This document shows positions 11,330 through 57,221 of a stretch of DNA of 64,000 nt, one piece after another; the stretch's first letter is position 1; every line of letters begins with the position of its first letter. The notes under the pieces are model-generated. The model was not told the DNA's origin. It was given only the letters and a program-made list of their open reading frames with translations, and made no database searches. Origin of the DNA: an uncultured delta proteobacterium (GTDB lineage Bacteria; Desulfobacterota; Desulfomonilia; UBA1062); assembly GCA_963752595.1 (NCBI GenBank), contig CAVVYZ010000022.1, positions 32,001 to 96,000 of the forward strand, written 5' to 3'. Both the position numbers and the translations under genes were made by a program.

Positions 11330-13663
11330 CTATTCCATGGGTTTATTTTCCATGAGCTCCCAGATCCCGCACGGGCATGCGCCTGCACAGAATCCGCAGC
11401 CTATGCACAGATCTTCGTCAGCCATGTATTCATAGTCACCTTGCTGAAGGTCCCTCCGTGAAATAGCCTGCTGCGGGCAGAGGGCTTCGCATACACCGCA
11501 GTCTCTGCATCCGCCGCAGGAGGCGCACTGCGTAGCGCACCGGCCTATGTCGGAACCGGCCTGTACACGCGGATCATAGTACTCCATTTTTACCCTGCCG
11601 GTGTCGATGGAAGGCAGCCGGTCATAGGTATCGTCGGTTCCGGACAGGCGTGCATCAATCGCCTTGGCAGCCTTTCTGCCCGCCCCGATCGCATCGGTGA
11701 GCAACCCGGGTTTCACGGTATCGCCGATGGCAAATACCCCGGCATCGGTTGTCCGGAAAGAATCATCTACCACGATGAATCCTTTCCTGCTGTCGATGCC
11801 TTCCGGCAGGAAAGAAATGTCCGGCTGATCGCCGAGGGCGAAGACGACCATGTCTGCCTTCAGGACTCTTCCGTCGGCAAGCGCGACCCCTTTTGCGGTG
11901 ATTGCCCTGGTGAATACCGGCCAGAGGAATTTCGAGCCTGCCTTCTCGGCCTCCTGGCGTTCCTTGCCGAACGATGCAGGCTCCTGGATATCGATGAGGG
12001 TGATGTCATGAGCCCCCAGGCGATGCGCCTCGGTGGCCACATCGCATCCGACGTTGCCTGCTCCGATAATCACAAGGCGCTTCCCTGCCTGGATACTGTC
12101 TGTCTTCGAACGGTGAAGGAATTCCAGAGCGGTAAGGGCCCGTTCATACCCCTTGATCTTCAATGTCCGGGGCATCTGTGCTCCGGTTGCGATGACCGTG
12201 TAATCATGACTGTCTCGGATTTCGAGGAATTTCTCCCTGTCCAGGTCGCGTTCGAACTTCCGGTACGGGATCTTGGCCGAGATCCTCTCCAGTTCCTGCT
12301 CGTAGAGATCTCTGGGAAAGCGGTTGTGGGGGATGGCAGAGGTTATCTTGCCTCCGAGCGAATCCGCCCTGTCAAAAATGACCGGCTCGTGGCCGTCCAT
12401 CCACAACTGCCAGGCAACGGATAAGCCGGCCGGCCCTCCGCCGATTATGGCGATTTTTTTCCCGGTCGGCCGGTGGGCTTCCGGTTCATGGACATTGCTG
12501 CTCGCTTTTCCGAGCACGGTCACATCGATCGCAGGCAGGAAATGCTTTGTTTTCGTGCAGCCGTCCATGCACAGATTCGGGCAGAGGTACCCGCACACGG
12601 TCGCAGGGAACGGCGTGTATCGGAGGGCAAGGTCCAGCGCCTCATCCATCCGGCCTTTCCGGATAAGCTCCCACCTTTTCTGCACCGGGATGCCGGTCGG
12701 GCAGTTTTCCTGGCAGGGCGGAATATACTTGTGGTTCTCCCAGGAGGGTACGAATCTGCGCAGAGTGCCCGTAGCGATGAGAGGGATCGGGCTGCGGTCT
12801 ACATCGGACAGGTCTCCGATCAAACCGCCCTTCCCCAGTTCCTGATCCCACACCTGGGAACGGAACTGTGACATCGCCATGCGCTTTTTCCCGGCCTTCT
12901 CGTGCGGCTGCAGCGCAACGAGAAGCTGCCACTCGGACCGGTCCCTGGTAAGTTCCTCAAAAAGCTCTTTATAGTGGATGGCCTTGAGGAAGTCCTTCAT
13001 GTTCGTGGTGAGCCATTCCCAGTCGGCATCAGAGATTTGTACGAGCTTGGCATCCCCCTGGCTGTACCCCTTGTGCGGCCCTTTGAAAAAGATCTTGCCT
13101 CCGACCATTCCGACGCAGGGCCTGTGGCCGAGGATATTGTCCCGGTAGTGGGAATCGACACCGCAGATTACCGCAACGCCTCCCGCCATGAACTCTGCGA
13201 AGGAATCGCCCACGCCGCCTAAAACCCACAGTTCGGGCGGGGTATAATGTGGATTGCTCTTCGTCATGGTCATGCCGCGGGCTCCGATGTCTCCTGCTAT
13301 GCAGACCTTGCCCTGGGCCATGGCGTTGGCAACGCCGTTTGTGGCATCGCCGTGGATAACGATGGTGGCACCTGCATTGAGCCACCCCACATCATCCGAA
13401 GCCGGTCCGTGCACTTCGATATAGGTCGTGGGCAAGCCCATGGAACCGACCCGCTGGCCGCTGTACCCGTAAATGTCGATCAGCGCAGTCTCGGAATCCG
13501 TTTTCCAGAGTCTTCCGCCGATACCGTGCTGGCCGAAGGCCTGTACCCCGATATTCCGGTAACCCTTTTCCACAGCCTCCTGGATTCGCTCCTCCAGGAC
13601 TCTGGATTCGATCCTGATATCGTTCTCTACACCCGAGATGATGATCTTTTCTTGCCGGCTCAT
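11330..13663 (-). CDS. Glutamate synthase subunit: GXGXG (GltB domain 3) fused to a GltD-like FAD/NAD(P)H oxidoreductase and C-terminal ferredoxin domain
   Basis: GQHGIGG, AEFMAGG, CVGMVGG; PCQENCP...VCGYLCP; IIGGGPAG; IGAGNVGCD; CxxCxxCxxxCP motifs at the C-terminus. Confidence 0.88.
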   Translation of the reverse strand: MSRQEKIIISGVENDIRIESRVLEERIQEAVEKGYRNIGVQAFGQHGIGGRLWKTDSETALIDIYGYSGQRVGSMGLPTTYIEVHGPASDDVGWLNAGATIVIHGDATNGVANAMAQGKVCIAGDIGARGMTMTKSNPHYTPPELWVLGGVGDSFAEFMAGGVAVICGVDSHYRDNILGHRPCVGMVGGKIFFKGPHKGYSQGDAKLVQISDADWEWLTTNMKDFLKAIHYKELFEELTRDRSEWQLLVALQPHEKAGKKRMAMSQFRSQVWDQELGKGGLIGDLSDVDRSPIPLIATGTLRRFVPSWENHKYIPPCQENCPTGIPVQKRWELIRKGRMDEALDLALRYTPFPATVCGYLCPNLCMDGCTKTKHFLPAIDVTVLGKASSNVHEPEAHRPTGKKIAIIGGGPAGLSVAWQLWMDGHEPVIFDRADSLGGKITSAIPHNRFPRDLYEQELERISAKIPYRKFERDLDREKFLEIRDSHDYTVIATGAQMPRTLKIKGYERALTALEFLHRSKTDSIQAGKRLVIIGAGNVGCDVATEAHRLGAHDITLIDIQEPASFGKERQEAEKAGSKFLWPVFTRAITAKGVALADGRVLKADMVVFALGDQPDISFLPEGIDSRKGFIVVDDSFRTTDAGVFAIGDTVKPGLLTDAIGAGRKAAKAIDARLSGTDDTYDRLPSIDTGRVKMEYYDPRVQAGSDIGRCATQCASCGGCRDCGVCEALCPQQAISRRDLQQGDYEYMADEDLCIGCGFCAGACPCGIWELMENKPME

Positions 13664-13672
13664 GTGTGCTCC

Positions 13673-15310
13673 CTAAACAACGTGTTTGATCTTGAGTCGC
13701 TCCGCAGTATGGTAGTCATCGATGCCGATGGCATCGGACATGCCGATGGGGAGCGAAGTGGATCTCCCAAGAGGTGCGAGGATCTTCTTGAGTTCGGAAT
13801 CAAAGCTCAGGAATACATCCACCACCCTCTGGGCAACGTCTTCCGGATCGAGGCGGCGGTAGAGCCTCGGGTCCTGGGAGGTTATGCCTTTCGGGCACAG
13901 GCCGATGTTGCAGATATTGCACCGGTCATTCTCCGAGCCGACGCACCCTGCAGCGGCCTGCATCATATATTTGCCGACCTGTACGCCGCTCGCACCGAGC
14001 ATGATCAACGCAGCAGCGTTGGCAGCGAGGTTTCCGTTTTTCCCGATACCGCCGCCTGCGAAAATGGGGATCTCGTTCTGTTTTCCGATCTTCACGAGAT
14101 TGAGGTATGCATCGCGTATATTGCTGGCTATGGGATGGCCCATGTGATTCATGGAGACGTTGTAGGCAGCGCCTGTTCCGCCGTCCTCGCCGTCTATGGC
14201 GAGCGCTGCGGCATACGGGTTGCGGGCAAGGTTATTGAGGACTGCCAATGAAGTCGTGGTCGCGGATATCTTGGGATACACAGGCACCCGGAAGCCCCAG
14301 GCCATGTACATGGACTGGATCATCTTGGCCACGGATTCCTCGATGGAATACTTGGTCTGGTGAGTCGGGGGCGAAGGCAGGCTCACCCTCGGGGGAACTC
14401 CCCGGATGGCGGCGATGAGCTTGTTGACCTTGTGCCACATGAGCAGTCCGCCGTCACCGGGTTTTGCGCCCTGGCCGTACTTGACCTCGATTGCACAGGG
14501 GTCTTCCTTCATCTCGGGCAGGGCATGGATGATCTCGTCCCAGCCGAAATACCCGCTCGCTATCTGGAGGATGACGTACTTGATGAAGCGCGACTCAGAA
14601 GCCTCGGCGGGCAGCCTCCTTCGCCGGTGCACATCCTGACGGGCATGCCGAGTTCTTCATTCAGGTACGCAACGCCCATCTGGAGCCCTTCCCACATGTT
14701 GGGCGAGAGGGCGCCGAAGGACATGCCGCCGATGATCAGCGGGTAGATCTCCCGTACCGGCGGTATCCAGCCTTTCTTTGATGAAGACTTGATCATTCTT
14801 CGGGGGGCAGGATCCTGCCCAGAAGGGTCCTCAGCTCGAACTCGTGCCTGCCTGCATCCAGCGCAGGGTCCGTGAGCATGGAGATCCGGACGAACTTGAT
14901 GCGGTCGAGCAGGCTTCGCAGAGTCGTTCCTCCGGCCGCCCCTGCGTCTCGGCTCGCCGTTCGCATTGATATGAAACCTGAGCTTGTCGATCTCCTCGTT
15001 GCGGACAGGGTAGATGGCGCTAGTTGGGGCAGACCAGCGTGCACATGCCGCACCCGATGCATGCATGGCCGGGTCGGTGACCTGACTGATCCCGTGATAG
15101 ACGCCATATACATTCCTGGGCTTTCCGGTCAGGCCCACGGACGTTGGGTATCTCGCTCTTCCGGTGCACACCCAGCTCGATTGCCTGCAGCGGGCACACG
15201 GCCGTGCAGTGTCCCGCACAGCGTGCACTTTTCCTTATCCCAGAGGATACTGCCACAGGAGATCCTTGCGTGCTTAGTGTGGATGGGTGCAGGGTTCCCA
15301 TTGGTTCCAT
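13673..15310 (-). CDS. Glutamate synthase FMN-binding subunit with N-terminal ferredoxin domain (GltB domain 2); several frameshifts
   Basis: CARCAGHCTAVCP, CIGCGMCTLVCP, GGMSFGALS, CTGEGG, QIASGYFG, EVKYGQGAKPGDGG, DGEDGGTGAA, CNICNIGLCPKGITSQ. Confidence 0.88.
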
Positions 15311-18631: not shown

Positions 18632-18647
18632 TGGCATTTCCTTTGCT
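18632..18647 (+). promoter_or_regulatory. Sigma54 -24/-12 promoter of the amtB operon
   Basis: TGGCATTTCCTTTGCT = GG-N10-GC, 35 nt upstream of amtB ATG; IHF-like TAACAACTAGTTA at 18603-18615. Confidence 0.85.
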
Positions 18648-18682: not shown

Positions 18683-20258
<1,576 letters not shown>

Positions 20259-20267
20259 GGCATCGGT

Positions 20268-22847
20268 ATGAGAGGTATGCTTACTGTGGAAAATGATGAC
20301 GACATAACATCAGGAGGCTTCCATCTTGCCCGGGAGCTTACTTCCCGGGCGGATGAGACCATTGCCTCACTGTTCAACGGATGCTCCCTGAAGCTCCTTG
20401 ACCATTGGTGTGTAGCCGCTCTCGGAGGATACGGCAGGCAGGAGCTGTGCCCCTTCTCGGATCTGGACATCCTTTTCCTCATCGAAAAGAAGCTCCCGCA
20501 GGCCCAGATAGAATCGGCCCTGAAAGAGATGCTCTATCCCCTGTGGGATACCGGAACCAATGCGAGCTACAGTGTCCGGACCATCAAGCAGGCGGTACAG
20601 GATGCCCGGAACGACTTTTTTTTCAGGACTTCGCTCATCGATGCCCGATATGTATGCGGTTCGAAGAGGATATTTGAGGGATTTTCTCAAGGCATAAGCT
20701 CCAGCAGATTTATCCTGAACACCAACCGGTTCGTTTCAGACCTCATCTTCCATACCCGCAAGCGGCATGAAAAATATGGAGATTCGGTATATTTCCTTGA
20801 ACCCCACATCAAGGACGGCCATGGAGGGTTACGGGATTATCAGAGCATCCTCTGGCTGATCAAGGTATTCAGCAGAACTTATGCCGTTCATGAGCCTCTC
20901 GTCGGTGCATACGATCTCGACGGGCTCAGCCGTTCTGCCGACCTCATGATAAAGACCAGGTTCCTGCTCCATACATGTACATGGAGAAAGACCGATCGGA
21001 TGCACCTCGAGTACCAGGAGATGCTGGCGCATGAGCTGGGATACAGGTCAGTACCTGATCACCCTGCAGTTGAAGCGTTTCTGAGGGACTTTCATACCGG
21101 GGCGCTCACCATTCGTTCGGTATTCGACGGACTGCTCCAGTTTCTGGAACAACCAAACGGCTTTGTTTCCATCCTTTCCCGAAGAAAAAAAGACGAACAC
21201 GGACACCTGCCGTCAGGGCATCTTCCCTTTTTCCGGCCGGAAGATTTTCAGAAAGACCCGAGCCTTATCCTCAAGGCCTTTGTACGGGCGGCCGGCAAAG
21301 GGCTTTCTCTTACTCCCCTTGTGCGGTCACAGATCAAATCCTTCCTCAAAACCGATACGGCACTGAAGAAGAACCCGGAGACATGCAGTATTTTCTTACA
21401 CATGCTCCAACATCCGGAAGCTGAAAAAACCCTGACCGGCATGCTTGAGACAGGGGTCATCGAAGGGTTTATCCCTGAGTTCCGGAAAATAAGGGGAAAG
21501 ACTATCTTTGATGTCTATCATACCTATACCATCGATCTTCACAGCATCCATACGGTATGCGAATTGAAAAAACTGGAAAACGTCGAGTCGGAAGCATGGG
21601 GCCGGGTCATTGACAGAGATGTTCTGTTTTTCAGCTCCTTTCTCCATGATATCGGCAAAGGCTACGGCAGGCCGCATGCCCTCCTGGGGTCAGAGGCCAT
21701 AGAGCCCATAGCCGTACGCTTCGGTTTTGACAAGGCCCGCAGAGAATCGATCGCCTTTCTCATCAGGAACCACCTGATCATGGCCGAGATTGCATCCAGA
21801 CGCGACCTTTCAGAGGAAAAGGTGATCAATGACCTTGCACAGAAAGTCGGGAGTGCTTCAAGGCTTTCCATGCTCTACCTGCTCACCATCGCGGACTCCA
21901 GAGCAACAGGTCCCGATGCCTGGAATGATTGGAAGGCATCGCTCTTGTGGGAACTCTATTTAAGGACGCTCAACATCCTCGAAAAAGGTATTCTGAAAAA
22001 CCGTAAGAACGCCATGAGACTGGAGGAGAAATGGCACAAGCTGGTCAGTCTTGCAGATACCGGGGAGGGTGCTCTCTTCAAGGGCCGTCTCTGGGCTCTC
22101 CCCCAGGCATATGTCCATATCTCTGATCTCGATGATATCAGAAAACACCTCTGCCTGAGCTCAGAGCTTGAAGGAAAGGACGATATAAAGGTGGAGATCG
22201 TCCATCGGAAAAACCATGTCATCCTCACCGTCATCACCCGTGACAGGCCGGGGCTTTTCTCCCTCCTCACCGGCATCCTGTCCGTTCACAGGATCGAGAT
22301 CATCTCTGCAAAGATATTTACCTGGTACGACGGCACGGTTGTCGATACATTCAAAGTCCTGGCGCCATGGCAGGATTATACGGAGTGGCATACAATCAGC
22401 AGCCGGTTCAGAGAGTACCTGTCGGGCAAAGTCGATATCGAATCCAGGCTCGTGAGTACAAAGGCCCTGAAGACGGACGATCCAGAACCTGTTCAATCCG
22501 CGGAAGGGGTTATGCTTGCTGTGGACAACGACACCTCGGACTTCTTCACCATCATCGATGTAAGGGCGATTAAGAGGATCGGCCTCATTCATGATATATC
22601 CCGGGTCATAAGCTCTTCAGGCCTCGCTATCCACCGGGCCTTCCTTTCACGGAATTCCGATCTTTTTTCATCGGTATTCTATGTCGTGGATGCAGGAGGG
22701 GAAAAGATGAGCGGCGAAGCCCGGATTCAGGAAGTGCTCAAAAGTATTCGAGAGGCTGTGGAAACACCCCGATTACCTGCTTCACCGCAAAAGGAAAACA
22801 GGGTATACAGCAGGGAGAATAAGAAGATGCGTGTCCCGGGAGATTGA
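20268..22847 (+). CDS. glnD: [Protein-PII] uridylyltransferase / uridylyl-removing enzyme
   Basis: ALGGYGRQELCPFSDLDIL, LEPHIKDGHGGLRD, YHTYTIDLH, LHDIGKG (HD), two ACT domains (DRPGL). Confidence 0.93.
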   Translation: MRGMLTVENDDDITSGGFHLARELTSRADETIASLFNGCSLKLLDHWCVAALGGYGRQELCPFSDLDILFLIEKKLPQAQIESALKEMLYPLWDTGTNASYSVRTIKQAVQDARNDFFFRTSLIDARYVCGSKRIFEGFSQGISSSRFILNTNRFVSDLIFHTRKRHEKYGDSVYFLEPHIKDGHGGLRDYQSILWLIKVFSRTYAVHEPLVGAYDLDGLSRSADLMIKTRFLLHTCTWRKTDRMHLEYQEMLAHELGYRSVPDHPAVEAFLRDFHTGALTIRSVFDGLLQFLEQPNGFVSILSRRKKDEHGHLPSGHLPFFRPEDFQKDPSLILKAFVRAAGKGLSLTPLVRSQIKSFLKTDTALKKNPETCSIFLHMLQHPEAEKTLTGMLETGVIEGFIPEFRKIRGKTIFDVYHTYTIDLHSIHTVCELKKLENVESEAWGRVIDRDVLFFSSFLHDIGKGYGRPHALLGSEAIEPIAVRFGFDKARRESIAFLIRNHLIMAEIASRRDLSEEKVINDLAQKVGSASRLSMLYLLTIADSRATGPDAWNDWKASLLWELYLRTLNILEKGILKNRKNAMRLEEKWHKLVSLADTGEGALFKGRLWALPQAYVHISDLDDIRKHLCLSSELEGKDDIKVEIVHRKNHVILTVITRDRPGLFSLLTGILSVHRIEIISAKIFTWYDGTVVDTFKVLAPWQDYTEWHTISSRFREYLSGKVDIESRLVSTKALKTDDPEPVQSAEGVMLAVDNDTSDFFTIIDVRAIKRIGLIHDISRVISSSGLAIHRAFLSRNSDLFSSVFYVVDAGGEKMSGEARIQEVLKSIREAVETPRLPASPQKENRVYSRENKKMRVPGD

Positions 22848-38138: not shown

Positions 38139-39362
38139 TTAGAAGAGAAAGAGCGGAAACGAATCCGGGTTCTTGCCGAAGCAGGTGAGATCGTCTATTT
38201 TATCTATTTTGGGACCTTTCAGCAAGGCGTAAAGCGATCGCTCGACACCGATTCCACCTCCCATGGTATCCGGAAAATAAGGCTTGTTGTTTCCATCCTT
38301 CATGGCGACTGCAGTCAGAAACGGCCCGTACCCATCTAGTATGGAGATATTTTCAAGTACACCGTTTGAGAATGCCGGGGCCTCGGGGATGATCTTGTTA
38401 TCGATGAGGCGGTAAATGATCGGTTCGTAAAGCCATTCCCGGATTGCACCGGAAAGTATCTCGAGCGCCGGAGTAAATTTGTTCGTCTCCCGCAGGAGGG
38501 ACCTTGCGCAGATATCATAGTTGTAAATCATGTCCGAGTCGAACGAAGTAAGCGGGAGCCTGGAGCCGTCAGGAAGGAGATAGGGATAAATGAGATCGTA
38601 GTTTTCCCGCAAGAGACCGGTTACCCAGAAAAATTGTGCGGATACGTCGTTTCCGATCTTCGCGTCGGTATCGATCTTCCCGTACTTCTTCAACGCATCA
38701 GTGTGCCTTATGCGCGGGAAAGGCTGTTTGGGAACTTCTATGGCTACACCGAGGTGCTTTAAATCATACTCGTTATTATCCGCAATCGCACTGAGAGCTG
38801 CAATGATCATTCGCTCGAAGAAGTCGATCACCTTCTCGAAGTCCTCTTTGAGGATCGCCTGAACTTTATCCGGGGAGTTCTTGTACTCGTCGAAACCGAT
38901 CCCGCGGTTGCGCCTCAATTCGACATCGATCTGGGAAAAGTCGATGAGGTACTTGCCGCGCTGCTTCCTCTGCGGGCTTTCGATTTCGAGCCTCACATTG
39001 GGCGAATCCACGAATATCCCTTTGATTCTCGGGTTAAAGCATGCGAGGAATTTCGAATAGATCATGGAGTGTGTCGAAACATACGGCATGCCTTTGTAGT
39101 GGATCGTCGGCACATGCTCAACGTCGTGAGCGAGGGGGTCGGTCACAGGGCTCATCTGTACCCGCTCAAGATTTATGAGGCCTTCCTTGGCAAGGTAATT
39201 ATGGATGGCAACGACAAATGACGTGCGGATATTCATTGCCGAAAAGAGCGTCTCGTTCACCCACTTCTCAACATAATTCTTTCTGATGAAATCTTCAAAG
39301 CTGCTGCCTGACTGAACGAGAGACGCCTGAAAGTGGAACAGGTCCTCACCAATAAAAGCCAT
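38139..39362 (-). CDS. AsnRS-paralogous, ammonia-dependent asparagine synthetase (archaeal AS-AR type)
   Basis: SPVTDPL, STHSMIYSK, SPNVRLE, DFSQIDVE, EILSGAIRE, GGGIGVER: class IIb aaRS catalytic core with no anticodon-binding OB domain. Confidence 0.8.
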   Translation of the reverse strand: MAFIGEDLFHFQASLVQSGSSFEDFIRKNYVEKWVNETLFSAMNIRTSFVVAIHNYLAKEGLINLERVQMSPVTDPLAHDVEHVPTIHYKGMPYVSTHSMIYSKFLACFNPRIKGIFVDSPNVRLEIESPQRKQRGKYLIDFSQIDVELRRNRGIGFDEYKNSPDKVQAILKEDFEKVIDFFERMIIAALSAIADNNEYDLKHLGVAIEVPKQPFPRIRHTDALKKYGKIDTDAKIGNDVSAQFFWVTGLLRENYDLIYPYLLPDGSRLPLTSFDSDMIYNYDICARSLLRETNKFTPALEILSGAIREWLYEPIIYRLIDNKIIPEAPAFSNGVLENISILDGYGPFLTAVAMKDGNNKPYFPDTMGGGIGVERSLYALLKGPKIDKIDDLTCFGKNPDSFPLFLF

Positions 39363-39482: not shown

Positions 39483-39498
39483 AGCAACCTCTATGCCA
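39483..39498 (-). promoter_or_regulatory. Sigma54 -24/-12 promoter upstream of the asparagine synthetase gene
   Basis: Minus strand TGGCATAGAGGTTGCT = GG-N10-GC. Confidence 0.8.
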
Positions 39499-41267: not shown

Positions 41268-41283
41268 AGCAATGATGATGCCA
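41268..41283 (-). promoter_or_regulatory. Sigma54 -24/-12 promoter upstream of purF
   Basis: Minus strand TGGCATCATCATTGCT = GG-N10-GC. Confidence 0.75.
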
Positions 41284-42801: not shown

Positions 42802-43521
42802 ATGGGTATACTGAATATAGATATCCTCACCCAGCCCGATGACTACACCTGCGGGCCCACATGTCTGCATGCCATTTATAAGTATTACGAAGACCCCATC
42901 GAGCTTCACCAGGTTATAGCCGAAGTGCCGATGCTCGCAGAAGGCGGAACGCTTGCGGTTTTTCTTGCAAATCATGCGTTGAAGCGGGGGTATCGGGCAC
43001 AGATCTACTCCTATAATCTCCAGATCTTCGATCCCACCTGGGCGAGGCTCGATGTAGACGAGATAAAGAAGCGGCTTATCCGGCAGATGGAGTTCAAAAA
43101 AAGCCCGAAGCTCAAGGTGGACACCCTGGCCTACCTGGAATTCTTCGATCTCGGCGGAACCCTGCACTTCGAGGATTTGAGCCCGTCTCTCATCCAGGGG
43201 TTCCTTCTTGAAAAGATCCCGATCATCACAGCGCTCAGTGCGACATACCTCTACAAGAGCGCCCGCGAGTACGGCCCTGAAAGTGTGTATGACGATGTCC
43301 AGGGAGAGCCTTCCGGGCACTTTGTGGTCGTGAGCGGGTATGATCCCATGAAACGCACCGTCATGGTTGCCGACCCTCACCTTCACAATCCCATCGCCTT
43401 CAGAAATAAGTATGAAGTGTCGGTCGACAGCCTCATCGGTGCCATATTCCTCGGCATTATCACCCACGATGCCAAGCTCATCATCATAGAGCCGAAAAAA
43501 GACGGGAGCTGTAAGATTTAG
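42802..43521 (+). CDS. Stand-alone C39-like papain-fold peptidase
   Basis: QPDDYTCGPTCL (Gln, catalytic Cys), GHFVVVSGYD (His), VADP (Asp). Confidence 0.85.
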   Translation: MGILNIDILTQPDDYTCGPTCLHAIYKYYEDPIELHQVIAEVPMLAEGGTLAVFLANHALKRGYRAQIYSYNLQIFDPTWARLDVDEIKKRLIRQMEFKKSPKLKVDTLAYLEFFDLGGTLHFEDLSPSLIQGFLLEKIPIITALSATYLYKSAREYGPESVYDDVQGEPSGHFVVVSGYDPMKRTVMVADPHLHNPIAFRNKYEVSVDSLIGAIFLGIITHDAKLIIIEPKKDGSCKI

Positions 43522-43522
43522 C

Positions 43523-44995
43523 ATGCGTACGCTGATTGTCGTGAACAATCCCAGGGACTGGCAGTTCGACATCCCGGGGGTCGAGGTTGTGGATGCCTGG
43601 AAATACCTCGATGATCCCGGCTACGGTGCGTTGCAGAGGGCGCGGGTGTTCAACCTCTGCCGTTCGTACCAATACCAGAGCCACGGATACTATGTGTCGC
43701 TGGTAGCCGCTGCCCGCGACCATAAACCCCTGCCCACAGTGATGACGATCCAGGACATGAAGACGCGCTCCGTGATCCGGGTCATGTCGGATGAGCTTGA
43801 TGAGCTCATTCAGAAGCATCTTTTCCACCTCACATCGCACCGCTTCGAGCTGAGCATCTACTTCGGCAGGAATATCGCCAAACGCTATGAACACTTGAGC
43901 ATCGCGCTCTACCGTCTCTTTGAAACCCCGCTGCTCCGGGCCTATTTTCACCGGACAAACGGCAAATGGTTTCTCCAGAATATCGAGCCCATCTCGACGA
44001 ACGAGATACCCGATGAGCACAAGGACTTCATCCGGCAGGCTGCGCTCGAGTACTTCGCAGGCAGGCGCAAAAACACGAAAAAGCTCAAGGAATACCGCTA
44101 CGATCTCGCTATCCTGACCAACGAGCATGAAGACTGTCCGCCATCAGATCAGCGGGCCATAGCCCGGTTCGTCCGTGCAGCGGATTCCCTGGGGATTGAT
44201 GCCGAGACGATCTCGAAGGACGATTTCAGCAGGATCGTTGAATTCGATGCACTCTTTATCCGGGAGACCACGAACGTCAATCACCACACGTACCGTTTTG
44301 CCCGTAAGGCCCAGACAGAGGGCCTTGTGGTCATCGATGATCCCTCCTCGATCTTAAGGTGCTCCAACAAGGTCTACCTCTCGGAGCTCCTGAAAACGCA
44401 CGGGATCCCCATTCCCGGGTCTGTCAACATCCACCTTCAGAACGTGAACTCGGTGAAGCGTTCCCTTGCCTACCCTGCCATTCTCAAACAGCCGGACAGC
44501 GCTTTCTCAAAAGGGGTGGTCAAGGTGGAGAATGTGCATGAGTTCGAGGCTGCGGTGGAGGAGCTCTTTGAAAAATCCGCCATCCTGGTGGCTCAGGAGT
44601 TCATGCCCACGGATTTCGACTGGAGAGTGGGCGTTCTGGACAATCAGGTGCTCTACGTATGCAAGTATTTCATGGCCCCTCATCACTGGCAGATTGTCAA
44701 GAAGGTTGAGAAATCGGGCAGGAACATCGAAGGATCGTTTGAAACCATACCCGTGGGCAAGGCCCCGAAAAGGCTTATCACCCTGGCACTCAAGGCTTCG
44801 GGTCTCATTGGCAGGGGGCTGTACGGGGTGGATATCAAGCAGGTCGGAAAGCGGTATGTCGTCATAGAGATCAATGACAATCCCAGCATCGAATCGGGGA
44901 TCGAAGACAAGGTGCTCAAAGACGGGCTGTATGTAAAGATCATGCAGGTCTTCCTCGATAGAATCGAAAAAAAGAAGGCGCCGAGGAAACTATGA
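43523..44995 (+). CDS. RimK-family ATP-grasp ligase with an N-terminal RLAN-type domain
   Basis: VFNLCRSYQYQSHGYYVSLVAAARDH, ALFIRETT, CSNKVYL, LKQPDSAFSKGV, QEFMPTDFDWRVGVL, GLYGVDIK, VIEINDNP. Confidence 0.9.
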   Translation: MRTLIVVNNPRDWQFDIPGVEVVDAWKYLDDPGYGALQRARVFNLCRSYQYQSHGYYVSLVAAARDHKPLPTVMTIQDMKTRSVIRVMSDELDELIQKHLFHLTSHRFELSIYFGRNIAKRYEHLSIALYRLFETPLLRAYFHRTNGKWFLQNIEPISTNEIPDEHKDFIRQAALEYFAGRRKNTKKLKEYRYDLAILTNEHEDCPPSDQRAIARFVRAADSLGIDAETISKDDFSRIVEFDALFIRETTNVNHHTYRFARKAQTEGLVVIDDPSSILRCSNKVYLSELLKTHGIPIPGSVNIHLQNVNSVKRSLAYPAILKQPDSAFSKGVVKVENVHEFEAAVEELFEKSAILVAQEFMPTDFDWRVGVLDNQVLYVCKYFMAPHHWQIVKKVEKSGRNIEGSFETIPVGKAPKRLITLALKASGLIGRGLYGVDIKQVGKRYVVIEINDNPSIESGIEDKVLKDGLYVKIMQVFLDRIEKKKAPRKL

Positions 44996-46233
44996 GCAGA
45001 GCCGGTGCTTCGCTTCATCTCTTTGAAGGATACGGCATCGAGCTTGAATACATGATCGTCGACCGGATAAGCTTGGATGTCCTTCCCGTGTCCGATAAGG
45101 TGCTTGCACGCGTTGCCCATGAATTTACGAACGAGGCGGATATGGGCAGGCTTGCGTGGTCCAACGAGATCGTGCTCCACGTCATCGAGCTCAAAACAAA
45201 CGGCCCGGTACAATCCTTCGAGGATCTGCCGGAACTTTTCAGGCAGGACATTGGTCACATCAATACGATCCTCGAACCCACGGGCGGCCTGCTCATGCCC
45301 ACCGGGATGCACCCGTGGATGGACCCGCGCACCAAGACAAAGCTCTGGCCCCATGAGAACGAAATTATTTATACCTCGTACGACCGTATCTTCGGAACCG
45401 GAGGCCACGGATGGTCGAACCTTCAGAGCATGCACCTCAACCTCCCCTTCCAGGGCGATGAAGAGTTCGTCCGGCTGCATGCCGCCATACGGCTCGTTCT
45501 TCCCCTTCTCCCTGCCCTGGCTGCAAGCACCCCGATAGTCGGCGGGTCGGCTACCCCCCTGAAGGATAACCGGCTGGAGGCATACCGGCATAACCAGGAG
45601 AAGATACCGTCGATCACAGGGCTCATCATACCCGAGGCTGTGCGGAGCATTGATGAGTACCGGAGCCTGATCCTCGAACCCATGTACCGCGACATCGCAC
45701 CCTACGATCCCGGGGGCGTGCTTCAGCATGAGTGGCTCAACTCGCGTGGTGCCATTCCCCGGTTCGAGAGAAACACTATCGAGATCCGCGTCATTGATGT
45801 CCAGGAGTGCCCTCTGGCCGACATCGCGGTAGCGTCTTTCGTATCTTCGGTGGTCAAGTCCCTTGTTGCAGAAAAGTGGTCCGGGCTCGAGGACCAGATG
45901 GCGATACCCACTGAAGATCTCTCGGATATCTTTCTCGGGACGGTGCGTCTGGCAGAAGGATACGAGGTTGACGGGCATGCCTATGCGCCCCTCTTCGGCA
46001 TTCAGCCGGGCATGCAGAGGCCGGCTGCCGGGACTGTATGGAAGCACCTTCTGGAAAGCTGCATGGATCTTTCATCCTGGGAGTACCCTGTTCTGGAAAC
46101 CATGCTCTCTCACGGCAGCCTCTCTACCCGCATCCTTAAACAACTCGGCAGCGGATTCTCAAAGAACGGGCTGAAAGCCCTTTATGGAAAGCTCTGCAGG
46201 AGTTTAAGCAGAAATGAACTGTTCATCCCCTGA
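44992..46233 (+). CDS. Glutamate--cysteine ligase family 2 (GCS2, carboxylate-amine ligase)
   Basis: GIELEYMIVD, HVIELKT, PTGMHP, SMHLNLP, NSRGAIPRF, IEIRVIDVQE. Confidence 0.88.
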   Translation: MSRAGASLHLFEGYGIELEYMIVDRISLDVLPVSDKVLARVAHEFTNEADMGRLAWSNEIVLHVIELKTNGPVQSFEDLPELFRQDIGHINTILEPTGGLLMPTGMHPWMDPRTKTKLWPHENEIIYTSYDRIFGTGGHGWSNLQSMHLNLPFQGDEEFVRLHAAIRLVLPLLPALAASTPIVGGSATPLKDNRLEAYRHNQEKIPSITGLIIPEAVRSIDEYRSLILEPMYRDIAPYDPGGVLQHEWLNSRGAIPRFERNTIEIRVIDVQECPLADIAVASFVSSVVKSLVAEKWSGLEDQMAIPTEDLSDIFLGTVRLAEGYEVDGHAYAPLFGIQPGMQRPAAGTVWKHLLESCMDLSSWEYPVLETMLSHGSLSTRILKQLGSGFSKNGLKALYGKLCRSLSRNELFIP

Positions 46234-46948
46234 CCGCTCCGGCCTCGTCATAACCTGCGAACATGCAGGCAATGGTATCCCTCAGGAGTTTTCCCGTATC
46301 TTTGCCGGGTCTGAAAATCTCCTGAATACCCACCGAGGGTATGACATCGGTGCACGTGAACTTGCCGACGCCCTTGGAAAAATATTTACGGTCTACGTGT
46401 TCTCCTCGCCCGTGAGCAGGCTCCTGGTGGATCTCAACAGGAGCCTGTCGAGCCGCACCCTCTTTCCACCCGTTACCCGTAACCTGCCGCAGAAAGAAAG
46501 AGAAGCGATCGTCAGGGACTACTACCTTCCCTACCGGGCACATGTTGAAGAACATATCAAGGCCCTGGCCTACTCAGGGAAATTTGTTCTGCACATATCC
46601 CTGCACACGTTTACCCCGGTGCTGCATGGTGTTGAGAGAAAGGCGGACATAGCATTTCTCTATGACCCGGAGAGGCCATCCGAATGCTGTTTAAGCTCCC
46701 GCATGGCAGAACACGCCCGAGGGGCAGCACAGGAGTACACCGTCCGGAGGAACTATCCATACCGGGGAGTTTCGGATTCATTCACCACACATTTGAGGAA
46801 ACACTATCCTCAGCACGTCTATGCAGGCATCGAGATCGAGGTAAACCAGAAGTACTGCCTGCCCGGCGATCCCCGCCGCATTTTCATCCGCCGCGTTCTT
46901 GCCGGGTGCATAACGCATGCTCTATCCCCTGTTCCTTCCTTCACATAG
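46214..46948 (+). CDS. N-formylglutamate amidohydrolase family protein
   Basis: ITCEHAGN, HRGYDIGA, SRLLVDLNRS, YYLPYR, SLHTFTP, NYPY, IEIEVNQ. Confidence 0.88.
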   Translation: MNCSSPDRSGLVITCEHAGNGIPQEFSRIFAGSENLLNTHRGYDIGARELADALGKIFTVYVFSSPVSRLLVDLNRSLSSRTLFPPVTRNLPQKEREAIVRDYYLPYRAHVEEHIKALAYSGKFVLHISLHTFTPVLHGVERKADIAFLYDPERPSECCLSSRMAEHARGAAQEYTVRRNYPYRGVSDSFTTHLRKHYPQHVYAGIEIEVNQKYCLPGDPRRIFIRRVLAGCITHALSPVPSFT

Positions 46949-47100
46949 AAGGAATGCTCCTGGACTCCATGAAGTGGAGTTGTGAATCATAAGCAGTAGA
47001 TTACTATTGTTTTATTGAGGCGAATAGTTCCCTGATCCGGATTTTACTAATGTTTCGATCAGCCAAGAGTACAATTCCCCGGCAGGAGGGTAATCTTCCC

Positions 47101-49360
47101 GTGTGGTTTAAATGGTTCCCCTGGAAGTATATGGTGAGCCGCCTGGCAAGGTCTGGAGGTTTCATAGACCCGGTCAAGATCCTCTTCAGGGTCGAGGCCT
47201 TTTCACAGCCCATGGATATCCAGAAGCCTCTGGAGATGCTCAGGTCCGGGATGGCCTTCCATGCACGGGGCATCCTGAACACGAGCGCCATCCAGCATAA
47301 TCTCGACTGGATATGGCCTTACTGGGTGGAGCGCCAGTACAACCCGCTCGACATATCCTTTGTCCCGAGGTCTTTTCTGCTGACCCATATCAATCTCACC
47401 CAGAGGAACTGGACCACCATAGGTTTGCCGGATTGCGACAACTTCTGCATCGTGGATCCCAAAGGCCTGCTTACCCCTTTCTGGGACAGCTGGTCTATCG
47501 ATGCATGGATCGTCGCTCAGGACGGAGCAGGCCTTTACCCGTCCCGCGTTCTCAACTCGGACCAGCGGCTCGATCTCGAGACAGGCCTTGCCGTGGAGAC
47601 TCACAGCCGGGTCCTGGGAATGGACCTCAAAAACCACCAGGAGGTGCATCTTCTGGGGGGTGTTCCTACCTGTGTGATGGACCTCCATGCCAGGAGCAAG
47701 GGCGATTCCTGGCTGGTGGTTTCCATACGGCCGTACAATCCCGAAGGTGTCAGCTTCATCTCCACGAATATCCCTGGGAGAGGATGCATCAGTCCTGAAA
47801 GTAGACGGGCACCGGGAGGTACGCCTCGATCCGCCCCCGAGGCATCACCGGTTTTCCTATTACCGCCATGGCGACGTCCACACGCGCCTCTTCGAAGACA
47901 GGAACGAGACCGAAGTTACCTGCAATGTCGGCATGGCAAGTGCTGCTGCGCTGTATCCCATAAGCCGGGACAAGGAAACGCACGTCAGGGTAAAGGTCCC
48001 GCTGGCGACGGAACATGAAAGAAAAAAGAGCTGTTCCCTGCCGGTGAGCTGGGAACATGCCCTCAAGGGGTTCACTTCATTCAGTCTCCCGGAAAAGAGG
48101 TTCCAGGATCTCTTCGAAGGATCCATCCGCGCCCTTGTCCTCCTGAGTCCCAACGGTATCGTATACCCAGGGCCGTATACGTACAAACGGTTCTGGTTCA
48201 GGGATGCTGCATTCATCCTCAATGCATTGCTGTGCCTCGGCCTGTTCGACAGGGTGGAGAAGGTCCTCGACAGCTATCCCGGAAGGCAGATCGCCAACGG
48301 GTTCTATCTCTCGCAGGAGGGCGAATGGGATTCCAACGGTGAGGCCCTCTGGATCATCAGGAGATATTGCGAACTCACCGGAAGGCCGCCGAAAGCATCG
48401 TGGCACCACTCGATACTCAAAGGCGCACGCTGGATATTGAACAAGCGCCTTTCAACGGATATCGACGAGCTCCATGCAGGATTGTTCCCCCCGGGTTTCA
48501 GCGCAGAGCATCTGGGGCCGAACGATTACTACTACTGGGACAATTTCTGGGGCGTGGCAGGCCTGCAGGCTGCAGCAGACCTCCTCGAATCGTATGAAGA
48601 TTTCAGAAAGGCCGACCGGCTCCGGGATGAATCGAACTTCTTTCTCAAGGCCGTGGAGAAGAGCCTGGCTCGTGTAGCCGATCATCTGGGGCGGCCGGGC
48701 ATACCTGCCTCTCCCTATCGCCGCCTGGATTCCGGGGCAATCGGCTCGCTCGTATCGGGTTACCCGCTGCAGATATTCCCGCCCAAAGATCGACGGCTCA
48801 TGGACACCGTTGATTTCCTTCTGGAAGGCTGCCTCGTCAACGACGGGTTTTTCCTCGACATCATCCATTCCGGGATAAACCCTTATCTGACGCTTCACCT
48901 TGCCCAGGCACTCATGCGGGCCGGCCGTATCGGCAGCCTTGACCTTTACCGCACCGTGGCCGATCTGGCATCGCCGACCGGGCGATGGCCGGAGGCAATC
49001 CACCCGCGTACCCTGGGCGGGTGCATGGGGGACGGCGATCATGCTTGGGCTGCAGCTGAATGGATCCTCATGATGCGCAACAGCTTCATCCGGGAGGAAG
49101 GCAATAAGATCGTCCTGGGCTCGGGTATTTTTCCTTCCTGGTACCGCAGGAACGATAAGATTTCTTTCGGCCCGGCGCCTACGCCTTTCGGGGAAATGAT
49201 AGTGAGGATCGAACCGAAAACGCAAGGCCTCCTGGTGACATGGGAGGGATCATGGCGCACGTGCCCCCCTTCCCTTGAGATATCCATCCCGGGCTTCGAC
49301 TCCGTAGTCCCGGGCCCGGAGGAAACCGTCGTAATGCTCACCTGGAAAGGGGAAGAATGA
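47101..49360 (+). CDS. Uncharacterised protein with a six-hairpin (alpha/alpha)6 glycosidase-like C-terminal domain; frameshift near 47765
   Basis: GTG start behind AGGAGG; ORFs 47050..48018 and 47687..49360 join near 47765; PGPYTYKRFWFRDAA, EWDSNGEALW, YWDNFW, WPEAIHP, HAWAAAE motifs. Confidence 0.7.
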
Positions 49361-51402
49361 ACATCCTGATGTTTACGAACACGTACCTTCCCCACGTGGG
49401 CGGCGTCGCAAGGAGCGTCCATAGTTTTGTCGAGGCCCTCAAAAAACAGGGGCATAGGGTCAGGGTGGTTGCCCCGTATTTCGAAGAAACTATTCTCACA
49501 GAGATCGATATTTTCAGAATACCTGCCATAAAGAACTTCAATAGATCAGGATTCTCGGTTCCCCTTTTTGCACCGGGCATGATTTCCAAAGCGGTTAAGG
49601 GGTTCAACCCGGATATCATTCATTCCCACCACCCCTTTCTTCTGGGAAACACTGCACTGAGGTATGCATCCTTTTTCCATGTGCCCATCGTGTTTACCCA
49701 TCACACCCTCTATGAACGCTATACCCATTATATACCCGGGGATTCGGTTCTGCTGAGAAGGTTTGCCGTAAGCCTTGCAACGTTCTACTGCAACAAATGC
49801 GATACGGTCATAGCTCCCAGCACATCGGTGGCTTCAATGATCTCCCAACGCGGGGTCCGCTCGCCGATAGATGTCATACCGACCGGCGTGAACAAGGACC
49901 GCTTTTCCAAAGGTGACGCCGCACTGTTGAAAAAACTGATCGGGATTCCCGAGAATGCCTACGTAATCGGCCACGTGGGCAGGCTCGCGAAAGAGAAGAA
50001 CCTTGAATACCTGGCTCTGGCCTTGTCCCACTACCTGCGCGCGAATCCCGATGACCATGTCATAATCGCCGGTGCAGGTCCCATGGAAGAATACCTGAGA
50101 AAGCTGTTTGCACACCACGGCCTCAACAGAAGGCTCCACATGCTGGGGATCCTGGGCGAAGACGAGCTCCCCTCCGTATACCGGGCCATGAACGTGTTCG
50201 CCTTCTCATCCCAGAGTGAAACGCAGGGACTGGTCATTACCGAGGCAATGGCCTCCGGTGTACCGGTTGTGGCCCTCAACGGGCCCGGGGTCAGCGATGT
50301 GGTGAAAGACCATGTGAATGGAAGGCTGATAACCGGTACGGATATCAGCGATTTCATTACCGCGCTCCAGTGGATGAAATCACTGGGACCCGAAGGGAAA
50401 ATGAACATAAAGGAAGCAGTTCACGACACAGCTGCGGAGTTCGATATGGACAGGAGCGTCGAAAAACTCCTCGTGCTCTACGGCTCCCTCCGGCAGGAAG
50501 TTTCGAGGGCTGCTTCCCCTATGACTGCGTACAGGGACATGCTCCTGACCCACGGCCGTATCATGGAGAGTTCATTATCTGCCTTGATCCATGCAGTTAC
50601 GCCGATATCGCGGGAGGTGTACTCCTGCCGGGACAATATCCCCGAAGACATGGAGATCCAGACCCTTCTGGCCCAGCATTCCGGAATAAGGGCACGCATC
50701 ATAGGATACGCCCTATCGTTTTATATCAGACTGCAGAAAACATCCTGGCATAAGCATCAGGAAGGGCTCGAGTACCTGAAGGCACAGCTCGGACAGGAGG
50801 AGCCTGTTCTCGTATCCTTCTGGCACGGTAAGTACCTGCCGCTCTTTGCCCTGCTCGAGGGACTGCATGGATGCATCTTCGCCAGCTGTTCATTCAGGGG
50901 AGAGGTCGTTGCCGAGATATGCAGGAGGTTCGGCTATGAATGCATCCTCATCCCCGAGCACGCTAGGAGCAGGGCAGTAGATATCATGGCCAAATCCATC
51001 CTCCACTACGGCACAGGAGCAGTGGCTGCCGATGGCCCACGGGGGCCAGGAAGGGTATTCAAGCGGGGGTCTGTACAGCTTTCCTCCGAACTGGGGATGA
51101 CCGTCATCCCGGTATCGGTAGCCGTATATCCCAAGATCGTTGCAAAAAAACGGTGGGACCGCTACGAGGCCCCCCTGCCCTTCGGCCATGTCTATCTCAA
51201 GGTTGGAAAAGGCATACCGGTGCCTGTGGGATTGAAATCGAACGAGATCGATTCCTGGTCGCTCCGGCTGAAAAAAGCGCTGGATGAAGTGGATGAAAGT
51301 GCTGAAGAGGGCTTACGGTCACTCGCTTTTCAACACAAGGGGATAATTCATGTCGAAAGATTATTACGAGATACTGGGCGTATCAAAGAATGCATCCGGT
51401 AA
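49357..51402 (+). CDS. GT4 glycosyltransferase (diacylglycerol glucosyltransferase-like) fused to a DUF374/LpxJ-like acyltransferase domain
   Basis: N-terminal [53 protein letters not shown]; C-terminal [28 protein letters not shown]. Confidence 0.82.

Positions 51403-55260: not shown

Positions 55261-57221
<1,961 letters not shown>

Follow-up and report, generated by a model that had tools for sequence, protein, structure and literature searches.

What do four tightly packed genes make when two of them encode predicted ligases and the other two predicted hydrolases? The question is raised by a block at positions 42802..46948 of a 64,000-nucleotide (nt) stretch of DNA from an uncultured delta proteobacterium (contig CAVVYZ010000022.1), hereafter called the window. 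All four genes lie on the forward strand. The first (42802..43521, 239 amino acids (aa)) encodes a C39-like peptidase (Pfam Peptidase_C39_2, PF13529; 43.6 bits, cut-off 24). It is followed by the gene of an RLAN-ATP-grasp ligase (43523..44995, 490 aa), which combines an RLAN domain (PF14401; 160.6 bits, cut-off 25) with a RimK-type ATP-grasp domain (PF08443; 31.9 bits, cut-off 21), by a GCS2 ligase gene (44992..46233, 413 aa; PF04107; 90.9 bits, cut-off 21) and by the gene of an FGase-family hydrolase (46214..46948, 244 aa; PF05013; 99.4 bits, cut-off 28.9). A single free base (43522) separates the peptidase and RLAN ligase genes, the RLAN ligase and GCS2 genes share an ATGA overlap (44992-44995) and the GCS2 and FGase genes overlap by 20 nt (46214-46233). 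The open reading frames (ORFs) of all four are uninterrupted; the ORF calls and the Pfam scores above the curated cut-offs bear out the families, the intactness and the junctions proposed in the initial annotation. Each gene occurs once in the window genome (tblastn), and their G+C contents (0.53-0.57) match that of the genome (0.53), which leaves no compositional hint of a recent arrival.

The answer to which we give about an even chance is a make-and-break pathway of small, non-ribosomal type: GCS2 would cap an amine with gamma-glutamate, the ATP-grasp enzyme would extend the product and the two hydrolases would undo both bonds. The locus is one more member of an already predicted gene set, and the pathway is real, conserved and uncharacterised. 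Neighbourhoods of RLAN-ATP-grasp, GCS2, GNAT and papain-like peptidase genes were reportedly predicted by Iyer et al. in 2009. The block holds the same RLAN ligase (PF14401) and partner families as those neighbourhoods, with no difference in kind: the RLAN domain stands N-terminal to a RimK-like ATP-grasp domain, and a papain-like peptidase and GCS2 or GNAT are found nearby. Added here are the ligase fusions, the alternation of GCS2 with GNAT, the pocket common to both types and the tie of FGase to GCS2.

When one genome per species was scanned, at least 577 relatives of the RLAN ligase were confirmed, of which the best 80 were analysed; these loci are the closest matches, near-duplicates included, and not a random sample. 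Within the fetched flanks GCS2 was present in 79/80, the peptidase in 72/80 and FGase in 48/80, and in the sole locus without GCS2 the sequence stops 3 nt past the ligase. The median intergenic gaps are -4, -1 and -7 nt, with gaps of at most 30 nt in 58/62, 55/72 and 36/41 gene pairs. From this co-occurrence among the best 80 of at least 577 relatives it follows that the grouping is not due to chance. The gene coupling claimed earlier thus recurs elsewhere, and the claim of a system that makes and breaks an uncharacterised peptide product, other than plain GshA, S6-modifying RimK and HutG, is supported both by the co-occurrence and by family cut-offs that the block proteins miss.

The two-ligase core

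The RLAN ligase and GCS2 are the obligate core of the block. Among the homologues of at least 859 residues (scoring was restricted to the 7,990 candidates with the most words in common), 51 of 52 unite RLAN with GCS2 in a single chain, and the remaining one is a GNAT-DUF3335-RLAN fusion. Nine fused ORFs were also found in DNA, all in metagenome loci. Such ligase fusions point to consecutive steps. GshF is a bifunctional precedent for fused ligases performing consecutive steps; its domain order is the opposite of the ATP-grasp-first order of the RLAN-GCS2 fusions. Prediction of a ligase-GCS2 complex gave a score of 0.00, which counts neither for nor against. Fusion of DUF3335 peptidases to GNAT domains is described in PMC10318531, which cites Iyer et al.

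The partner of the ligase was typed with profiles built here in 168 loci (the 80 closest plus 79 and 9 from two other sets, after removal of short duplicates and one repeated contig). GCS2 was the partner in 143 and a same-strand GNAT in 17; neither was found in 8 and both in none. Six of the eight loci without a partner end at most about 1.2 kb from the ligase, and the other two have an opposite-strand GNAT. In L150, L179 and L224 the GNAT is fused to the ligase. The two types share one ligase pocket: R247, T250, R368, Y382, W389, N451 and D462 are present in 137/137 GCS2-type and 17/17 GNAT-type sequences. Since GCS2 and GNAT families both acylate amines, the simplest reading is that either partner supplies an N-cap. 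The hydrolases are distributed unevenly between the types. A papain-type peptidase occurs in 120/143 GCS2-type versus 2/17 GNAT-type loci (the latter detected via a one-sequence DUF3335 profile), and FGase in 74/143 versus 0/17, or in 66/120 versus 0/11 when full flanks only are counted. A SET-domain gene adjoins the RLAN block in 6/168 loci, four GNAT-type and two GCS2-type (L004:10368-10964, L115, L135, L139, L177 and L179).

The RLAN ligase can be divided into the RLAN domain (residues ~1-180) and the RimK/LysX/ArgX-like ATP-grasp domain (~190-490). Its structural model, with a predicted local distance difference test score (pLDDT) of 87.9, aligns with ArgX over 268 residues (VIA Z 26.6, root-mean-square deviation (rmsd) 2.4) and with RimK over 271 (Z 25.2, rmsd 2.8). 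K283, K322, R247, R368, D437, E449 and N451 are found in 154/154 aligned ligase sequences; K283, K322, D437, E449 and N451 are predicted to be catalytic. The secondary structure hinted that RLAN might be an internal repeat of the pre-ATP-grasp domain, a candidate that hhalign left unsupported (probability 1.5%).

In RimK, the residues R64, R189 and N262 contact the bound glutamates, according to PMC10375531 and PMC10092738. All three are retained, as R247, R368 and N451. In the poly-glutamate belt of RimK, R96 is kept as K/R279, R98 has become T/S281 and R102 has become Y/F285. The FRSNLHRGG loop of RimK is replaced by HWQI, and the arginine preceding it by the invariant Y382; this arginine (R203), of which no mention was found in PMC10375531 or PMC10092738, may bind the incoming amino acid. 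The specificity residue of LysX, F182 (as given in PMC12998189), aligns with G370. In view of the changes at R98 and R102 of the belt, in the loop and at F182, the incoming residue need not be glutamate, and the invariant acids D452 and D462, judged from the alignment, hint at a basic one. The RimK fold and R64, R189 and N262 are kept, whereas part of the poly-glutamate belt and the FRSNLHRGG loop are replaced, and for the latter reason alpha-glutamate addition by the RLAN ligase is not established.

The belt also bears on a capped storage polymer. Here the RLAN ligase would build a chain of one amino acid from a primer, gamma-glutamyl or acetyl, comparable to the poly-alpha-glutamate of RimK or to cyanophycin, and the peptidase would mobilise this polymer. 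RimK does form poly-alpha-glutamate in vitro (PMC10375531), the ligase has a predicted isoelectric point of 9.0 and its extra N-terminal domain could hold a growing chain. However, the very belt residues R98 and R102 are replaced and RLAN is no detectable repeat of the catalytic domain. With the nitrogen context (below) taken into account, such a polymer seems quite unlikely.

Ordinary GshA, S6-modifying RimK and HutG standing side by side would be another explanation, and the Pfam family names alone speak for it. For the ligase it fails at the family level, with 21.9 bits against a cut-off of 331 for the S6-ligase NCBIfam model NF007764 and 64.5 against 143.4 for TIGR00768. It fails at the target as well. 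The tail of ribosomal protein bS6 in the window genome resembles those of 11 congeners without detected RLAN. If bS6 were the target, each carrier genome should have a bS6 with an acidic C-terminus, but among five carrier genomes searched for bS6, the archaeal one has no match and one bS6 ends in Lys. On these grounds bS6 is excluded as a general target. Together with the missing histidine-catabolic context of the FGase protein (next section), this leaves the explanation largely refuted and worth hardly any credence.

Overall, the block resembles RimK/RimB in the ATP-grasp fold, in the three conserved glutamate-contacting residues and in the pairing of ligase and peptidase (PMC11957051). It differs by its RLAN domain, its GCS2 partner, a papain-fold instead of an aspartic peptidase and the lack of a link to bS6, in addition to the loss of R98 and R102 and the exchange of the loop for HWQI.

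The predicted cap and the two hydrolases

The GCS2 protein is predicted to be a glutamine-synthetase-fold carboxylate-amine ligase, and more specifically a gamma-glutamyl ligase. The Glu, His and Arg residues that bind metal and substrate in this fold are present: E17, E19, E59, E66, R252, R257, E264 and R266 are invariant and H148 is found in at least 90% of 69 GCS2 sequences. The profile matches YbdK (1R8G, E 0.0048), and the protein stays under every GshA/YbdK NCBIfam cut-off (best 56.3 versus 176.4 bits; gshA_cyano 24.1 versus 249). Glutamate most likely enters the product via GCS2, as a gamma-linked cap.

A gamma-glutamyl ligase next to an ATP-grasp ligase recalls glutathione. In a glutathione-like thiol route, GCS2 would make gamma-Glu-Cys, to which the ATP-grasp enzyme would join Gly or a different residue, and the papain-fold enzyme would play the part of a phytochelatin synthase. 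The three fold types are indeed those of GshA, GshB and phytochelatin synthase, structures of Alr0975 with glutathione are among the fold matches of the peptidase, and GshB was not found in the window genome (84% complete). The likeness to GshA plus GshB, or to GshF with Alr0975, thus extends to a gamma-glutamyl ligase, an ATP-grasp ligase (fused in relatives) and a papain-fold enzyme. The block ligase, however, is of RimK type and not of GshB type, GCS2 lies far under the GshA/YbdK cut-offs and no link to glutathione transferases was seen. In a sample of the phylum, the transferase family GST_N_3 matched in 1/10 GCS2-type genomes versus 99/301 overall, a difference that is a trend only because kin are not independent; the single matching genome also has GshB. 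Replacement of GCS2 by GNAT would moreover be unexpected for glutathione, and we hold the thiol route to be very unlikely.

The FGase protein is predicted, from its sequence, to be a metal amidohydrolase of the Atu2144 (CEHA-motif) type and a gamma-glutamyl-amide hydrolase. Atu2144 is the only solved relative that was found (PDB 2ODF, E 3e-20). H17, H40, D44, R69, N75, R76, H131 and E209 are common to 8 cassette and 7 outside FGase sequences; H17, H131, N75-R76 and E209 are the predicted catalytic residues, with an apparently intact metal site. The seven outside relatives, inspected for lack of the cassette, come from the 15 listed among 144 matching plasmid records. Five of them have a glutamine-synthetase-family gene and an aldehyde dehydrogenase, one an ethanolamine ammonia-lyase and one a transglutaminase-family gene. 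None of the seven has hut genes beside it, no hut family recurs beside the block, no NCBIfam model matches the FGase protein at E 0.01 and urocanase was not found in the 84%-complete window genome. The occurrence of FGase with GCS2 but not with GNAT and the operons of the outside relatives make an eraser of the GCS2 bond more likely than a HutG. An FGase-NUDIX domain fusion was observed at L016:9874-11133.

The same operons suggest a further possibility, in which an amine serving as nitrogen source would be catabolised via gamma-glutamylation, as happens with ethanolamine or polyamines, and FGase relatives do occur in such operons (PMC6529630). In ethanolamine gamma-glutamylation a GlnA4-type ligase is combined with an FGase-family hydrolase, and a glutamine-synthetase-fold ligase with the same FGase subfamily, sharing its active-site residues, is also what the block contains. 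Those operons, though, have a transporter, dehydrogenases and a regulator. The block has none of these but does have a second ligase and, besides, a papain-fold peptidase, and amine catabolism appears highly improbable.

The first gene of the block encodes a predicted C39-like papain-fold cysteine peptidase or transacylase. Q11, C17 and H173 are invariant and D191 is present in at least 90% of 63 aligned peptidase sequences, and these four are the predicted catalytic residues. With no room for a signal peptide, the enzyme is predicted to be cytoplasmic. Its model (pLDDT 91.6) matched the PCAT1 C39 domain, PeiR, Alr0975 and CtaG in Foldseek, with TMq of 0.40-0.51, and may fit a hydrolase and a transacylase alike. 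The match to CtaG is weak (E 3e-3). CtaG shows that a papain-like fold is able to form amides, as described in PMC7183216. The closthioamide enzymes CtaD and CtaG from the same source also pair ATP-grasp with a C39-like enzyme; they differ from the block in their need for peptidyl carrier proteins, none of which is conserved beside it.

The proposed pathway and its alternatives

From the observed anatomy, catalytic residues, co-occurrence, fusions, partner alternation and the tie of FGase to GCS2 we infer the chemistry of the steps, the order of ligation and the bonds that are cut as follows. GCS2 would join the gamma-carboxyl of glutamate to an amino acid through the amine of the latter, giving gamma-Glu-Xaa. 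The RLAN ligase would then add one or more amino acids to yield gamma-Glu-Xaa-Yaa(n). The papain-fold enzyme would cut or transfer at the Xaa-Yaa bond, and the FGase-family enzyme would split gamma-Glu-Xaa. Alternatively, capping may come after extension, on Lys or another side-chain amine. The GNAT-type loci would make an acetyl-capped analogue, much as Ngg does in the synthesis of N-acetylglutaminylglutamine amide (NAGGN). The predicted product has, by analogy, the logic of glutathione or NAGGN, probably with other residues, and a stress or solute role may be envisaged.

NAGGN offers the precedent for an acetyl cap combined with ligation: Ngg N-acetylates one glutamine and joins a second one (PMC8070244). 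The NAGGN genes (Ngg, AsnO and a peptidase; PA3459-PA3461) are nearest to the GNAT-type loci, with an N-acyl cap, a non-ribosomal bond and a peptidase in the operon. They differ from the block in that no AsnO-like amidotransferase recurs beside it and that its cap is predicted to be gamma-glutamyl.

Several observations weigh against this make-and-break pathway or its details. The closest folds of the ligase, namely ArgX, LysX/ArgX and RimK (Z 25-27), all act on a protein C-terminus. In the fold search for the peptidase, which has the Cys-His-Asp triad, glutathione-type enzymes do not stand out: Alr0975 scores no better (TMq 0.42-0.47) than the PCAT1 leader peptidases or the isopeptidase PeiR. 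Hydrolysis of gamma-glutamylglycine by an FGase-family member in ethanolamine use is, in PMC6529630, predicted and not measured. The partner alternation is weaker than its counts suggest. A tree of 44 ligase rows, chosen from 164 sequences, needs two partner changes, but a single clade of GCS2-type ligases is not rejected by the approximately unbiased (AU) test (p 0.274), so that the alternation may go back to one ancient swap and repeated independent swaps are not established. Moreover, the 168 loci are far from independent, and the alternation therefore weighs as one or two observations. In L004, a weak and different GNAT, missed by the profile, lies two genes beyond FGase (27.6 bits). A lone RLAN ligase in a Pseudomonas aeruginosa plasmid record (L204:5908-7497) has no GCS2, GNAT or peptidase adjacent. 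Finally, the SET genes beside 6/168 loci would fit a protein or lysine target.

Two of these loci deserve a separate remark. About 1 kb upstream of the L004 block, the opposite strand encodes a RimB-RimK fusion, and the L204 ligase lies near a gamma-glutamyltransferase, a glutamate/aspartate ATP-binding cassette transporter and a pyridoxal-phosphate enzyme.

The folds that act on protein C-termini and the SET genes lead to a reversible protein tag. In this alternative the amine modified by GCS2 (elsewhere by GNAT or SET) would belong to a protein or to a residue that the RLAN ligase appends to one, and the peptidase and FGase would erase the modification. The retention of R64, R189 and N262 would suit a tag, the extra RLAN domain could recognise the target, the peptidase resembles the isopeptidase PeiR and the Pup ligase PafA has a GCS2-type fold. 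Nevertheless, a conserved target or modifier gene is absent from the flanks, bS6 is excluded as a general target, the FGase subfamily is found elsewhere in operons of small-molecule gamma-glutamylation, and the spread over many phyla plus one archaeal locus is hard to reconcile with a host-specific protein target. A protein tag is therefore judged unlikely, though to be kept in mind.

If the make-and-break pathway is correct, it would mean a new small peptide metabolite and a new substrate class for RimK-like ligases, as well as a function for a large FGase subfamily, which annotation routinely assigns to histidine catabolism. Thanks to the partner pattern and to the fusion of both ligases in one protein, the product can be tested for directly. 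A broader and decidedly more doubtful version, possible as it is, would place the RLAN ligases at the core of a widespread, undescribed class of N-capped peptide metabolites with interchangeable caps (gamma-glutamyl from GCS2, acetyl from GNAT and sometimes methyl from SET), and the product would serve as a novel compatible solute or in stress. Were this broader version true, fusion would have given rise to a new bifunctional peptide synthetase in reverse order to GshF, the pocket (invariant Y382, HWQ, D452 and D462, with Gly in place of LysX F182) might take a non-glutamate and possibly basic residue, and the metabolite would be common to anaerobes, myxobacteria and Bacteroidota, with a reduced archaeon among its makers as well.

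No report of the block product was found in full-text searches, nor any literature joining RLAN, ATP-grasp and RimK; most of the subscription literature was outside the scope of both. N-formylglutamate amidohydrolase was not combined with ATP-grasp or glutamate-cysteine ligase among the literature matches listed, and DUF3335 or PF11814 was named in two papers. The literature on Klebsiella CfmP deals with a TupA-type enzyme and is irrelevant to the block, and PMC12802237 mentions PA1345 solely as an entry in its table of CpxR site predictions.

Distribution and surroundings of the block

The records of the best 80 loci are titled Desulfobacterota, Myxococcota, Bacteroidota, Balneolota, Fibrobacterota, Planctomycetota, Chlamydiota, Bdellovibrionota, Spirochaetota and one Woesearchaeota archaeon. 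Within its own lineage the block is accessory: RLAN was detected in 2/41 related genomes and 0/11 congeners, and in 14/301 genomes of the window's phylum (10 GCS2-type, 4 GNAT-type), where contigs that came up twice were counted once. Among the control genomes, Bacteroides thetaiotaomicron has an RLAN match. The block is thus old, mobile and widespread. Three Fibrobacter loci and one Woesearchaeota locus are reduced to the ligase plus GCS2. The latter (L052:2891-5630), in a genome of 0.9 Mb, is flanked by the genes of initiation factor IF-2 and Trm1, and on account of these neighbours the contig looks truly archaeal. In a GCS2-FGase locus without a peptidase match (L225:4182-5692, minus strand), the RLAN ligase gene is broken into two ORFs.

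A fifth conserved gene was not found in the best 80 loci, where the flanks vary by locus and no other ORF of at least 70 aa recurs. A further flank scan, at E 1e-12, covered 79 references for flanking ORFs plus 2 long FGase ORFs; it omitted 18/96 references (likely repeats of represented or already scanned families) and added the flank of L061. No precursor peptide or carrier gene recurs either: the 359 short ORFs of 64 loci cluster only as pairs of close kin. The conserved precursor or carrier gene that would stand beside the ligase in a graspetide, a ribosomally synthesised and post-translationally modified peptide, or in a carrier-templated pathway is accordingly missing from these loci. 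The lipid head group contemplated in the initial annotation left no sign in the neighbourhoods, and neither did a carrier or precursor peptide.

An MscS-channel-domain family (two members scanned) lies near the block in 3/80 loci, TrkA/TrkH adjoins it in 2/80 and a TreT-type enzyme in 1/80 (L005, L009, L036, L044 and L051). Counted without a background rate, these neighbours give a faint hint of an osmotic context.

A role in nitrogen storage or stress had been favoured by the supposed position of the block beside a nitrogen regulon. The genes in question, glutamate synthase (11330-14632), Amt (18683-19888) and GlnD (20268-22847), are 20-31 kb upstream, separated from the block by unrelated genes. 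A perfect match to the sigma-54-type motif precedes amt (18632-18646). Upstream of the block itself there is no match even allowing one mismatch, and the strict motif was found in 0/54 related loci, the control region also giving 0/54. In the whole window 23 matches were counted versus 15.3 +/- 4.1 expected by chance, a marginal excess. Nitrogen genes do not recur in the flanks of related loci. Given this distance, the missing sigma-54 site and flanks in which nitrogen genes do not recur, the nitrogen regulon role is rejected, and the lack of site and neighbours also counts against the storage polymer.

Sigma-70 promoter and terminator scans stayed near chance (5 versus 3.4 and 7 versus 3.7, respectively). 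Just 3' of the block, two overlapping ORFs (47050-49360; 322 and 557 aa) without Pfam or NCBIfam match resemble one frameshift-split gene, and are followed by a GT4-DUF374 glycosyltransferase (49357-51402); the pair stands beside the block in 0/80 related loci. A groEL-like gene (55565-57221) and a glutamate-synthase-like gene (13673-15228) also appear split across frames, and these two splits suggest indel errors of the assembly rather than true pseudogenes. Two further perfect sigma-54-type motifs, both on the minus strand, precede a tRNA-synthetase-like gene (39484-39498) and purF (41269-41283). The 407-aa protein encoded at 38139-39362 (minus strand) has a weak match to the catalytic domain of class II (Asp/Lys/Asn) tRNA synthetases (34.4 bits), with no further domain found, and is possibly a synthetase paralogue.

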